30,931 nucleotides of DNA from a virus (taxonomy: Duplodnaviria > Heunggongvirae > Uroviricota > Caudoviricetes). The stretch lies in the IMG/VR virus record IMGVR_UViG_2651869725_000007; one strand, written 5' to 3'. The notes beneath the pieces were generated by a model. The model was not told the DNA's origin. It saw only the letters and a list, made by a program, of their open reading frames with translations, and made no database searches. Position 1 is the stretch's first letter. Every line of letters begins with the position of its first letter. This document shows, in pieces, positions 3,070 to 30,511 of the stretch. The position numbers and the translations under genes were made by a program.

Positions 3070-3900
3070 ACCGGATTCCTCCTGCGATCCCTTCTGATAC
3101 TGTCATCAGCATTACGTCATCCTCCGTCATGTCCGCCACATCCGGGGAAACGGGGATAACTTCATTCCCGTCCGGACCAAAACGAACGCCTCCGGCAAGC
3201 CCTGCCGCTTTCTGCATCAGCACATCATCTTCAGGCTCTTCGTCAGCCTCACGCCGGTTCAGCAGACTGAAATCCAGCGGATGCATATCCGGATCGCTGA
3301 AAAACAGGCTGAGCACGGTGTACGTCAGCCCGGAAAAGTGCATATCCAGCAGAACATCATGAAAATAATGGGTACTGTAAAAGCGGTGCCAGTCGGCATA
3401 CTCCGTGGATGACATCCCGGCAAGCATGGCACGCCAGTCGGGTCGCCCCATCTCACGCGCCAGTTTCAGGGCAAAACTCAGCTCACCGTCGAACACTTTC
3501 CCGCAGAAACAGGCTCTGCAGGCCCGGCGTCCTCTGCCTGTTCAGGGGCATCATTCACCACAAACTCATACATACCAGACAGCCGGTACACCACGTTTTC
3601 AGCATGAGAAATTGCCTCCGCGGGCCAGGTGGTAAGCACTTCCTGCTCAATCTGTTTAACGGCTTCATTCATGGACGGCATCTGCGTCTTCTGCGGATGG
3701 TTATGCCACAGGGACATCGCCACCACAAAAGCGCCGGTTCTGATGGCGTCTTCCACAGTAAACTTCCGGTTGCTGTCTGACTCCGCCTGTTCTGCCTGCC
3801 GTTTCATCAGGGCGAGATGCTCAATACGCTGCAGGGCTGACAGTTCAGAAAGCGTGACGGTCACACCGTTATGTTCAAATGATTCGGTTTTCAGGAACAT
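3062..3900 (-). CDS. T: tail assembly chaperone G-T fusion made by programmed -1 frameshift
   Basis: T-frame ORF 3062-3496 overlaps the end of G; the slippery heptamer GGGAAAG lies at the junction (3496-3502 on the minus strand), as in lambda. Confidence 0.8.
3478..3900 (-). CDS. G: tail assembly chaperone G
   Basis: 140-aa ORF matching lambda gpG in length and sequence as recalled; directly upstream of the T frame. Confidence 0.9.
   Translation of the reverse strand: MFLKTESFEHNGVTVTLSELSALQRIEHLALMKRQAEQAESDSNRKFTVEDAIRTGAFVVAMSLWHNHPQKTQMPSMNEAVKQIEQEVLTTWPAEAISHAENVVYRLSGMYEFVVNDAPEQAEDAGPAEPVSAGKCSTVS
3496..3502 (-). other. G-T slippery heptamer (GGGAAAG) for the -1 ribosomal frameshift
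   Basis: The plus strand reads CTTTCCC at 3496-3502, at the overlap of the G and T reading frames. Confidence 0.8.
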
Positions 3901-17212: not shown

Positions 17213-17426
17213 GAAATAAAGGGATAACGATGATAGTTTGAGAAAAACAGAAATAACACTTTTGTGGCAAAGCATGGTGCCGGGTGCCTCCCGGTGAATT
17301 CAGCCGGTGTCACTGAACCCGCGTCGGCTTGCCTATAACATAATAAATGCTACCTACACCAGTCGCCCCTCCGCACAGGGGGATTCACCATGCAGAAGTG
17401 TTTTTAATAAACAGTAAACAAAAAAA

Positions 17427-18192: not shown

Positions 18193-18269
18193 TGGTGCGT
18201 TGTACTGGGTTCGAACCAGTGACCGATTGCTTAGAAGGCAATTGCTCTGTCCGGCTGAGCTAACAACGC
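18193..18269 (-). tRNA. tRNA-Arg (anticodon UCU)
   Basis: Hand-folded cloverleaf on the minus strand: 7-bp acceptor stem, anticodon loop CTTCTAA, T-loop TTCGAAC, 3' CCA encoded. Confidence 0.88.
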
Positions 18270-18282
18270 AGAATACCGATAA

Positions 18283-18359
18283 TGGACCGCCATCGGAGAC
18301 TCGAACCCCGCGAAACCAGCTTCGAAGGCTGGCGTTCTATCCCGATGAGCTAATGGCGG
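18283..18359 (-). tRNA. tRNA-Arg (anticodon UCG)
   Basis: Cloverleaf on the minus strand with anticodon loop CTTCGAA, T-loop TTCGAGT, 3' CCA; one mismatch in the D stem. Confidence 0.82.
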
Positions 18360-18360
18360 T

Positions 18361-18436
18361 TGGTGGCCCTTGCTGGATTTGAACCAGCGACCTGGCGATT
18401 ATGAGTCGCTCGCTCTCACCACTGAGCTAAAGGGCC
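18361..18436 (-). tRNA. tRNA-Ile2 (anticodon CAU), ileX/ileZ-like
   Basis: Minus-strand sequence GGCCCTTTAGCTCAGTGG…CTCATAATCGCC…GGTTCAAATCC…GGGCCACCA closely follows E. coli ileX as recalled. Confidence 0.85.
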
Positions 18437-23189: not shown

Positions 23190-23345
23190 TTACTCCTCAG
23201 GTTCGTAAGCTGTGAAGACAGCGACCTCCGTCTGGCCGGTTCGGATTCGTACCTCGCAGAGGTCTTTCCTCGTTACCAGTGCCGTCACTATGACGGTTAA
23301 ACAGATGACGATCAGGGCGATTAACATCGCCTTTTGCTGCTTCAT
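23190..23345 (-). CDS. hokD: Hok/Gef-family membrane toxin (HokD/RelF-like)
   Basis: 51-aa product MKQQKAMLIALIVICLTVIVTALVTRKDLCEVRIRTGQTEVAVFTAYEPEE matches HokD as recalled; start at an internal ATG of the longer ORF. Confidence 0.85.
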   Translation of the reverse strand: MKQQKAMLIALIVICLTVIVTALVTRKDLCEVRIRTGQTEVAVFTAYEPEE

Positions 23346-23536
23346 AGCCTGCTTCTCCTTGACCTTTCGGTCCGTAAGAGGCAATCTATATGTGACGAGC
23401 ATATAGGGGCCTCACTTCGATTTATAGTCGGGTGGGGCTTTTATCTATCTGCCGTTGGTGTTCATGCCCAAGGCAGATAGCCTCAAGCACCCGCAGCAAT
23501 TCTACTTAACTCTGCCGTTACAGCAAGCCGTTTTCG

Positions 23537-28793: not shown

Positions 28794-28994
28794 CCCCTTT
28801 TTTCTCCACACCCTGTAATAAAAAGCACAAACTTTCAAACACTTGTGTTTTTTACACCAAAAAACTTAGGTTTTTCTACATAAAAATCTTGACCATATGC
28901 CTTAGGTTATTCTAAATTTCACTCATCAAGACACCGCACGGTGTTCTCAGCAAACAGTTCCGCTACTCCGGCGTTAAGGGGAAATGAGGTCAAC

Positions 28995-29150
28995 ATGGAT
29001 ACTATCGGTCTTGGCAACAACGAATCTCTGGTGTACGGCGTGTTTCCCAACCAGGACGGCACATTCACCGCGATGACGTATACCAAAAGCAAAACGTTTA
29101 AAACCGAAAATGGTGCCCGTCGCTGGCTGGAAAGAAACTCAGGTGAGTGA
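28995..29150 (+). CDS. ydfA: YdfA-like small protein
   Basis: 51-aa product MDTIGLGNNESLVYGVFPNQDGTFTAMTYTKSKTFKTENGARRWLERNSGE from the internal ATG with a GAGG ribosome-binding site. Confidence 0.7.
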   Translation: MDTIGLGNNESLVYGVFPNQDGTFTAMTYTKSKTFKTENGARRWLERNSGE

Positions 29151-29151
29151 T

Positions 29152-29280
29152 ATGGATTTCGACACAATCATGGAAAAGGCTTACGAAGAATACTTCGAAG
29201 GCCTTGCCGAAGGCGAAGAAGCTCTCAGCTTCAGTGAGTTTAAACAGGCGCTTTCCAGCTCGGCAAAATCTAACGGCTGA
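29152..29280 (+). CDS. ydfB: YdfB-like small protein (42 aa, below the ORF-track cut-off)
   Basis: ATG 1 nt after the ydfA stop; translates to MDFDTIMEKAYEEYFEGLAEGEEALSFSEFKQALSSSAKSNG. Confidence 0.6.
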   Translation: MDFDTIMEKAYEEYFEGLAEGEEALSFSEFKQALSSSAKSNG

Positions 29281-29309: not shown

Positions 29310-29528
29310 ATGCAGAAACGAGAACCCGTCATCATCGCGCCAGACTATACCGATGATGAACTTTATGAGTGGATGCGCCAGAAAATTAATGCAGCGCAGG
29401 ATCTGAAATGGGCCAATGAAGCCAGGGCTAAGCAGGCTGAAAATCTGTCCGCTCTGGAGCAGGGTATCGCCAATCTGGAAAAAGCAGCGGCATTAAGCAT
29501 TGCCAGAATGATTACATACCCACGTTAA
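29310..29528 (+). CDS. ydfC: YdfC-like small protein
   Basis: 72-aa ORF in the expected order after ydfA and ydfB. Confidence 0.6.
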   Translation: MQKREPVIIAPDYTDDELYEWMRQKINAAQDLKWANEARAKQAENLSALEQGIANLEKAAALSIARMITYPR

Positions 29529-29550
29529 TAGCTAACCAACGAGGCTAATA

Positions 29551-29871
29551 ATGGAATTTAAAGATTTACCAATGCAATTCCAGGAAATGGCAGCGAATAT
29601 AGTTCGTTCCCAACTGGCGACTCTTGACCTGAGTACCGTAGAAAAAGAAACCATCGATACTATATCCGGTAACGTGCGTCGTGCCTTTATCGGTCTGTAC
29701 GAAGAGAAGCAGCTCTCTGATAACCAGGATTTACATGAAAAATACTTCCTGGATCTAATGGACATCATTGATAAGGGGCTTGGCTTGTTAATGAAAAAGA
29801 AAGGAATTCGAATAGAACCCCTTGAAAATTACTTTTCAACAAAAAGCATTAATTCTTTTGATTCAAAATAA
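29551..29871 (+). CDS. hypothetical protein in an insertion between ydfC and dicF
   Basis: 106-aa ORF with a GAGG ribosome-binding site; AT-rich 3' half; no family recognised. Confidence 0.5.
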   Translation: MEFKDLPMQFQEMAANIVRSQLATLDLSTVEKETIDTISGNVRRAFIGLYEEKQLSDNQDLHEKYFLDLMDIIDKGLGLLMKKKGIRIEPLENYFSTKSINSFDSK

Positions 29872-30124
29872 GAGAATTAATTACAGACTTAACATGCTCT
29901 TTCTCATGATTGAAGCTCTCATGATTGAAAGTGCCAGGTTGAAGCGAGTCGATATAATCAACAAGACTCTGTCGTACGACTTCATTTTTATCCATAACAG
30001 ATGCAAGAAATGAAATTGCTAAAAGAGTTATATCACTACGCGCCGCAGCATGCTGCAATGCTTTATCAAAATTATTAATCTGGCGTATCAGGGAGTTAAT
30101 GATTTCATCATTTTCAGTCGACAT
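29849..30124 (-). CDS. hypothetical protein, convergent with and antisense to the dicB operon
   Basis: 91-aa product from the ATG at 30122-30124 with a strong GGAGGG ribosome-binding site; 3' end overlaps the 106-aa gene by about 23 nt. Confidence 0.5.
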   Translation of the reverse strand: MSTENDEIINSLIRQINNFDKALQHAAARSDITLLAISFLASVMDKNEVVRQSLVDYIDSLQPGTFNHESFNHEKEHVKSVINSLILNQKN

Positions 30125-30458
30125 TTCACCCTCCTGAGGGTTGGTGATTAAGGAGTTCTCCACGGGTGAGGTGGAGTGCGTGCGCCGGACACGGGTGAGC
30201 ATCCGGCACTGACAGTTTACTGAAAGGATATTTCTCTGAAAAGTCAGAGCATAACGCGAAAGCGCACGGCGAGGTTGCTGGTTCATAGATAGCCTGTCGT
30301 TAAATTTTCGTCGACCGTGCGCTTCCGGTTGTGGCACTCCGCGAAATGGCGCGGCGGTAAGTATGGCGGGGTTATTCCTTCACCGTTGAGGACACCGGGT
30401 TGTCAGGTTGACCATACGCTTAAGTGATAACCCCGCTGCAACGCCCTCTGTTATCAAT

Positions 30459-30511
30459 TTTCTGGTGACGTTTGGCGGTATCAGTTTTACTCCGTGACTG
30501 CTCTGCCGCCC
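30459..30511 (+). ncRNA. dicF: DicF small regulatory RNA
   Basis: 53 nt TTTCTGGTGACGTTTGGCGGTATCAGTTTTACTCCGTGACTGCTCTGCCGCCC followed by TTTTT; matches K-12 DicF as recalled; about 175 nt upstream of dicB. Confidence 0.8.

Follow-up and report, generated by a model that had tools for sequence, protein, structure and literature searches.

What occupies the interval between ydfC and the small RNA gene dicF in a lambdoid prophage whose early-left operon follows the order of that in Qin of Escherichia coli K-12, and how did it come to be there? The interval, positions 29,551 to 30,458, is part of IMG/VR record IMGVR_UViG_2651869725_000007 (Caudoviricetes), a stretch of 30,931 nucleotides (nt) that is called the window below. 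A preliminary description of this DNA took the interval for foreign material inserted into a K-12-like dicB operon, with two small convergent genes, which are referred to here as the forward gene (in the orientation of the operon) and the reverse gene (on the opposite strand). Comparison with related prophages shows instead that the block is one of several alleles at a recombination hotspot within the early-left operon of E. coli and Salmonella lambdoid prophages; alternative cassettes with conserved ends, together with an empty state, are found between the same edges, and the block is therefore not a one-off foreign insertion.

Extent of the block relative to K-12 Qin

In the window, the end of ydfC and the start of DicF are separated by 931 nt, in agreement with the earlier estimate of about 930 nt. 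The corresponding distance in K-12 had been given as within about 120 nt, whereas in strain MG1655 the end of ydfC (1649041) and the start of dicF (1649382) leave a gap of 340 nt. Pairwise alignment with MG1655 1648823-1649624 yielded a single clean indel relative to Qin, corresponding to window positions 29549-30138 (590 bp), the left edge of which is located 2 nt 5' of the forward ATG and the right edge of which is the ribosome-binding site (RBS) of the reverse gene. This alignment could have shown the same spacing and the same genes in K-12; both small genes are absent from Qin. The insertion relative to K-12 is thus real, but it is smaller than the previously proposed 0.8 kb, and a third of the interval 29551-30458 (~320 nt, 30139-30459) is not insert but the dicF leader, which is present in K-12 at ~97% identity. 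The two open reading frames (ORFs) are as described, i.e., a forward ORF of 106 amino acids (aa) and an opposite-strand ORF of 91 aa behind a GGAGGG site (Table 1), and their 3' ends overlap, with 23 nt common to both (29849-29871).

The GC content is 31-37% over 29725-30099 and 45-57% in the flanks. AT-rich DNA had been placed in the 3' half of the insert; it is indeed present, but it covers the reverse gene and also the final third of the forward one. The other two thirds of the forward gene have an ordinary GC content and belong to a common prophage family, phrog_6937, and the foreign origin proposed for the insert does not hold for this part. A repeat search at 29549 and 30138 found neither the terminal inverted repeats nor the target-site duplication of an insertion sequence or a miniature inverted-repeat transposable element. 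A deletion between two 11-nt repeats spaced 591 nt apart (29507/30098) was also considered and rejected, because the junctions lie elsewhere.

Alternative cassettes between the same edges

Prophages of E. coli and Salmonella were found to carry at least five cassette types between ydfC and the leader of DicF, besides a forward-only form and the empty site (Table 2). The empty K-12-type junction is present in 2,854 of 5,426 complete E. coli genomes (53%), the DNA of the forward N-terminus in 1,431 of the 5,426, and a reverse-specific probe of the window type (type a) in 198. Lysogens with the cassette include E. coli SCU-123 (NZ_CP051711) and STEC388 (NZ_CP041425). The forward proteins of every filled type open with the same ~53 residues. 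At the other edge, alignment of the right flanks shows that the unrelated reverse genes have in common the GGAGGG motif, the position of the ATG, and the leader; the RBS region of type e is one base shorter than that of types a, b, and c.

The simplest reading of these alignments is that cassettes are exchanged by homologous recombination between two conserved arms. The conserved edges would act as the homology arms, with the first ~53 forward codons on the left and the RBS, start codon, and 5' leader of the reverse gene on the right, and the DNA between them would be swapped as a cassette. The site is a mosaic accessory slot of the familiar lambdoid kind, with the shared translation start as its twist.

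In some prophages (e.g., L040, ~3470-3900), a different reverse-oriented gene is found ~70 nt further right, inside the leader, which makes this a second insertion point. Its product (148 aa, phrog_6315) is a two-helix membrane protein with a strongly hydrophobic segment and a weak SLATT-like PADLOC match (E = 0.025). The label SieB was considered for this protein and dropped, as no SieB domain was found.

Table 1. Features of the cassette and of the surrounding operon in the window
Feature	Position	Strand	Basis
DicA-like repressor gene, 135 aa	28386..28793	+	ORF; 61% identity to K-12 DicA over 131 aa
Candidate operon promoter 5' of ydfA, TTGACC-18-TAAATT	28889..28918	+	Consensus scan, 9/12 matches
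ydfA	28995..29150	+	PF07151 DUF1391, E = 2.4e-27
ydfB	29152..29280	+	
ydfC	29310..29528	+	Nearly identical to K-12 ydfC; matches phrog_1744
Cassette type a, block missing in K-12 Qin	29549..30138	.	Pairwise alignment with MG1655
Forward gene, 106 aa, truncated allele of the 124-aa phrog_6937 family	29551..29871	+	phrog_6937 match
Conserved forward N-terminal domain, ~53 aa; putative left homology arm	29551..29709	+	PHROG and cluster matches
AT-rich hairpin at the ORF ends, followed by GCTTTTTGTT on the minus strand	29838..29881	-	Inverted repeat I3
Reverse gene, 91 aa	29849..30124	-	ORF, GGAGGGTGAA 5' of the ATG at 30124; stop at 29849
Type-a-unique low-GC DNA; codes for reverse residues 1-85	29870..30124	.	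Probe counts, GC profile, homology break
15-nt tandem repeat in the reverse gene, encodes HESFN	29902..29929	-	Direct repeat D1
Reverse RBS region, GGAGGG at 30129-30134; cassette right edge	30125..30138	-	Identical in types a, b, and c
Conserved leader; plus strand, dicF precursor; minus strand, 5' flank of the reverse gene; putative right homology arm	30139..30459	.	~97% identity to K-12
DicF small RNA	30460..30511	+	Rfam RF00039, 76.7 bits, E = 1.7e-15
dicB, 62 aa	30686..30874	+	PF05358 DicB, E = 1.7e-37

Table 2. Cassette types at the site, with counts from the 120 IMG/VR contigs that carry an exact 19-mer across the right junction (this 19-mer occurs in at least 120 contigs)
Type	Forward product	Reverse product	Where found	IMG/VR loci (of 120)
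a (window)	106/109 aa	91 aa		21
b	124 aa	73 aa (phrog_7249)	L003-L006	14
c	133 aa	92 aa (phrog_18692)	L007-L010	39
d	124 aa	None	L039	Uncounted, lacks the probe motif
e	135 aa	77 aa (phrog_10348)	PPompW prophage, L092	42
f	201 aa	63 aa	IMG/VR loci	4

The forward gene

The forward protein matches phrog_6937 (E = 1.9e-68) over residues 1 to 106 of the 124-position profile, and 235 homologues were found in a large protein collection. The match covers the full length of the window protein, but the last 18 residues of the family are missing from it. The window is homologous to the 124-aa gene of cassette types b and d up to ~29868, and this break indicates that the last ~18 codons of the 124-aa form were replaced when the type-a-unique DNA (29870-30124) was joined. 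In addition, a change of CAA to TAA at 29869 makes the window gene 3 codons shorter than a 109-aa allele.

Between alleles, the ratio of nonsynonymous to synonymous substitution rates (dN/dS) of the forward gene is 0.15-0.41, which is the lowest of the three frames. In the N-terminal 53 codons, dN is 0-0.016 versus a dS of 0.13-0.16; i.e., the protein is nearly invariant here. This N-terminal domain is common to phrog_6937, phrog_1363, phrog_2151, phrog_9419, and phrog_33007, and 35 clusters at 50% identity contain it, in each case at the N-terminus (residues 1-5x) and followed by unrelated C-termini of 30-155 residues. Among deposited phage genomes, the N-terminal domain occurs in Shiga toxin (Stx) and PPompW phages, in which the rest of the forward protein was not found; the proteins with this domain in Stx phages, such as PA2 gp25, have no convergent partner. 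The AlphaFold2 (AF2) model of the forward protein consists of three helices and is of low confidence (predicted local distance difference test [pLDDT], 64.5).

The reverse gene

The reverse gene is coded almost entirely by the type-a-unique DNA, and its last 6 to 7 codons are the antisense of the old forward-gene sequence. Two alleles differing at 16% of bases gave a dN/dS of 0.28, which is the lowest of the six frames; together with the values for the forward gene, this indicates that both ORFs are real genes under purifying selection. The 91-aa sequence is intact in most of the 198 genomes and 21 IMG/VR loci, and reverse alleles of 86, 91, and 96 aa in IMG/VR prophages carry 1, 2, and 3 copies of the HESFN repeat, respectively, so that the length variants remain in frame. 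Close relatives of the gene were found in E. coli only, and the 91-aa protein was not found in deposited phage genomes. The protein is acidic (pI 5.4) and helical, and its AF2 model is a soluble three-helix structure of low confidence (pLDDT, 66.8).

The 91-aa protein shares 28% identity over 86 aa with the 92-aa type-c protein, a member of phrog_18692 (BLASTP, E = 9e-6). Direct hmmscan against phrog_18692 gave a weak match (E = 0.022), and a joint profile of the reverse proteins recovers members of the family in E. coli and Salmonella. The window protein is thus probably a remote relative of phrog_18692.

A longer reverse model of 145 aa, with its start at 30286, is given by PGAP/RefSeq (WP_001351093.1). 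Its extra 54 codons are located in the leader, which is noncoding in K-12; its start ATG is absent in type c, and the extension region contains indels. The start of this model is probably overextended, and the 91-aa form with the strong RBS is the credible one. Just past the reverse stop codon, an inverted repeat with 12-nt arms (92% complementary) and a 10-nt loop forms a weak stem and, read from the sequence, is followed by a T run; this hairpin is a candidate terminator of the reverse gene.

Searches for function

No characterized family was matched by either protein in the profile and structure searches that the preliminary description had called for. In Pfam, NCBIfam, and PADLOC, no match to the two proteins or to the products of the other cassette types rose above noise, and the PHROGs matches are families of unknown function only (phrog_6937 and phrog_18692 are both annotated as such). 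Sequence-profile searches of the PDB returned nothing usable for either protein, and Foldseek searches of both AF2 models against BFVD gave no match with an E value of <0.3. In PADLOC-DB 2.0, the best match of the reverse protein is BrxA (E = 0.014, 12.7 bits), which does not qualify as a defence-system match; the forward protein and the other cassette types have no match in that database. A literature search on the locus, the protein accession numbers, and the PHROG identifiers found no description of the site; in the papers searched, this stretch is treated as an untranslated 3' region of ydfC from which DicF is produced.

Comparison with the Rac sieB slot and with morons

The order in the Rac prophage is ydaF (DUF1391, the ydfA family), a convergent and overlapping sieB, the small RNA KilS, and kilR. 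As in the window, the last small gene of a repressor-controlled early-left operon is met and overlapped by a convergent reverse gene, which is located just upstream of a DicF-type small RNA and a cell division inhibitor gene. Homology extends to the leader core and to the 3' part of the small RNA, which align among Rac, the window, and the Salmonella loci. The products, on the other hand, differ. SieB is a 162-aa protein, compared with 91 aa in the window, and no PF14163 domain was found in the window protein with the same Pfam model that detects Rac SieB (E = 1.5e-31). No membrane segment was found in it either, the 19-residue Kyte-Doolittle maximum of 1.43 being below the usual 1.6. The RBS region of Rac sieB also differs from that of the window reverse gene.

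Morons and the mosaic accessory slots of lambdoid phages, for example lambda bor and lom, are an established concept, and reverse orientation within a repressed operon is the usual signature of a gene that is expressed from the prophage. The window reverse gene resembles morons in that it is small, opposite in orientation to a repressed operon, and lower in GC content than its flanks, and the cassette resembles them in being present or absent, with variable identity, among otherwise collinear prophages. Unlike the situation in usual morons, the alternative genes here share one fixed RBS, start codon, and leader, and the left crossover is located in a coding region, which results in in-frame fusions of the 53-aa N-terminal domain to unrelated C-termini.

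The leader and the adjacent small RNA

The leader is conserved across cassette types, and its core is common to the Rac and Salmonella prophages. On the minus strand, it is predicted to fold into three hairpins (z = -2.8 versus shuffled sequences for the 111-nt leader of the reverse gene). In the last of these (region 30105-30175), the predicted fold pairs UCACC..CC with GG..GGUGA, which is the reverse RBS, and translation of the reverse gene may be structurally gated by an RBS hairpin. A 10-nt direct repeat, CACGGGTGAG, is present at 30161-30170 and 30190-30199 in the loops of two adjacent leader hairpins, which Salmonella prophages also retain. These hairpins could serve as a nut- or put-like site recognized by a protein or an RNA, with an effect on read-through of the DicF terminator.

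Rac KilS (L097, 4906-5003) and an unannotated Salmonella element (L093, ~3740-3800) share with DicF the 3' part (GGCGG.A.CAGTTT...CCGCCCTTTTTAAAG) as well as the leader core. These three look like one small RNA family placed before different division inhibitor or ydaE genes.

Interpretation of the cassette

We consider it probable that the site is a cassette exchange hotspot that holds an operon-borne forward gene and a moron-like reverse gene. The forward gene would be read together with ydfABC-dicF-dicB from the repressor-controlled promoter and would be made on derepression only; its cotranscription with the operon is quite likely. The earlier proposal that the cargo is placed under DicA control can be applied to the forward gene only and not to the reverse gene, which is antisense to the operon and has its own conserved leader and RBS. 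By analogy with morons, we infer that the latter is independently expressed. Its soluble, helical product would be translated from the conserved strong RBS of a transcript running against the operon, as that of a moron in the Rac sieB slot, and would act by binding something, possibly excluding other phages. The lysogen would express the reverse gene to the advantage of the prophage or the host (e.g., through phage exclusion by protein binding), and antisense transcription of the gene would also dampen read-through into the toxic dicF-dicB genes; this is a tentative proposal that may well not hold.

Several observations weigh against this interpretation. Neither a SieB domain nor a membrane segment nor a defence match was found for the reverse protein, and it is therefore only its position that suggests a role in exclusion. 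Confidence in the two AF2 models is low (pLDDT, 65-67), and the fold searches were without result. A consensus scan of the 330 nt upstream of the reverse gene found no sigma-70-like promoter with at least 9 of 12 matches; the sole 9/12 match is located farther off, between dicF and dicB, and a weak TTTTCA-17-TAAACT is seen nearer by eye. The leader may be conserved solely as the DicF precursor on the other strand. Finally, the 92/93-aa reverse homologue of type c retains a partner of the same 71-aa type in E. coli as well as in two Salmonella-type contexts, and the overlap is 41 nt throughout; in the latter contexts, the partner is a free-standing 71-aa gene without the N-terminal domain. This hints that some forward-reverse pairs may be functional units.

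The same retention of a partner would also fit a cognate module of the two proteins, i.e., a toxin-antitoxin-like, toxin-immunity-like, or sensor-effector defence pair in which the forward C-region is matched to the reverse protein and the convergent overlap couples their expression. All filled cassette types but one contain a convergent pair with overlapping 3' ends, each reverse type among the 120 IMG/VR loci has one forward length class, and the combination of a conserved N-terminus with a variable C-terminus and a variable neighbor recalls polymorphic toxin loci. However, genes that physically overlap would co-occur within a type in any case, and the phrog_6937-type C-terminus is found with the 91-aa gene, the unrelated 73-aa gene, the 148-aa gene of L040, or, in L039, no reverse gene. 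Conversely, the reverse proteins of types a and c are homologous but are paired with unrelated forward C-termini; remote homology between these C-termini was considered and rejected, as no similarity was detected even by profile-versus-profile comparison. On balance, the forward and reverse parts appear to assort independently, which weighs against an obligate cognate pair for the window cassette. Searches of Pfam, NCBIfam, and PADLOC revealed no toxin, antitoxin, or defence model for either protein. Classical type II toxin-antitoxin pairs are codirectional in one operon, whereas the genes here are convergent with overlapping 3' ends, and one forward type accompanies three different reverse genes or none instead of strictly co-occurring with one. 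We therefore regard a cognate pair as unlikely. It is decidedly unlikely that the cassettes are an allelic series of two-gene phage-conflict modules (defence or counterdefence) in which the 53-aa domain docks on a common partner, the C-region and the convergent protein set specificity, and convergent transcription ties their balance to dicF-dicB derepression; were this true, the fixed RBS and leader would be a dedicated expression socket for rapidly exchanged cargo.

The reverse unit might also act mainly as RNA, with antisense transcription or double-stranded RNA gating read-through into dicF and dicB and the 91-aa product being secondary. DicF is released from the ydfC 3' untranslated region (UTR) by RNase E and RNase III processing (PMC9438474, PMC5069750), dicF and dicB are toxic when expressed (PMC5069750), and the reverse unit is located directly upstream of dicF within what these papers call the UTR, with a leader that folds better than shuffled sequences and places a hairpin over the RBS. 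Nevertheless, purifying selection acts on the protein encoded by the reverse ORF, the unrelated 63- to 92-aa ORFs at the same strong RBS point to selection for protein output, and half of the genomes handle dicF-dicB with an empty site; a mainly RNA-based role is thus quite improbable. The loss of the last 18 codons of the 124-aa form, the premature TAA at 29869, the antisense origin of the last reverse codons, and frameshifted and truncated versions in databases would fit a decaying remnant without present function, in which a truncated forward pseudogene is accompanied by a reverse frame that is open by chance in AT-rich DNA. This reading is very improbable in view of the purifying selection in both frames, the many intact copies of the 91-aa sequence, its in-frame length variants, and the distant Salmonella homologues. 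A single insertion of foreign DNA by a mobile element into a K-12-like dicB operon, to which the low GC content over 29725-30099 and the absence of the block from K-12 would correspond, is hardly credible: the edges have neither terminal inverted repeats nor a target-site duplication, two thirds of the forward gene are of ordinary GC content and of a common prophage family, and the existence of many alleles at the site largely refutes it.

About a quarter of complete E. coli genomes contain at least one prophage with another gene in the ydfC 3' "UTR," usually along with an antisense gene. The amounts of DicF and DicB could change in cassette-bearing strains, and DicF has been linked to virulence regulation in enterohemorrhagic E. 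coli, where such an effect could matter if the cassette is in an expressed copy. As a compact natural system that joins unrelated small ORFs to one fixed translation start, the site is useful for the study of accessory-gene exchange among prophages. It also provides a shortlist of about ten uncharacterized small proteins for phage exclusion or host effects, although these functional stakes are unproven.

Operon context in the window

A dicB-type early-left operon occupies the right end of the window. DicF, whose score is above the RF00039 gathering score of 48, is located downstream of ydfC, and dicB occurs with ydfA and ydfC in the K-12 order. Compared with the K-12 Qin operon (ydfABC-dicF-dicB-ydfD), the window shares ydfA, ydfB, ydfC, the leader, DicF, and dicB in the same order, and the aligned stretch from ydfC to the start of dicB is ~97-99% identical. 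In contrast to Qin, the 590-bp cassette splits ydfC from the leader, so that DicF is not in the ydfC 3' UTR but downstream of a further ORF and an antisense gene. The prophage itself is not Qin, as it carries a full structural gene set.

The position of the candidate promoter (Table 1) is by analogy with that of the K-12 dicB operon, and from the repressor homologue and this promoter-like site, we infer that the operon is repressed by the adjacent DicA-type repressor. With an identity of only 61% to K-12 DicA, this repressor is taken to be of a different immunity type, whereas ydfC, the leader, and DicF are 97-99% identical to those of K-12; these values indicate separate histories for the immunity region and the early-left operon.

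The whole segment 6000-30931 of the window was found in 0 of the 5,426 complete E. coli genomes, with the best genome match, to O157-type prophages, having 84% coverage and 94.7% identity. By this comparison, the window is a mosaic without a representative among those genomes. Rfam matches elsewhere in the window, on the minus strand at 23343-23492, 17239-17419, and 18196-18436, are to the sok antitoxin RNA (a hok/sok-type module), the small RNA STnc100, and three consecutive tRNA genes.

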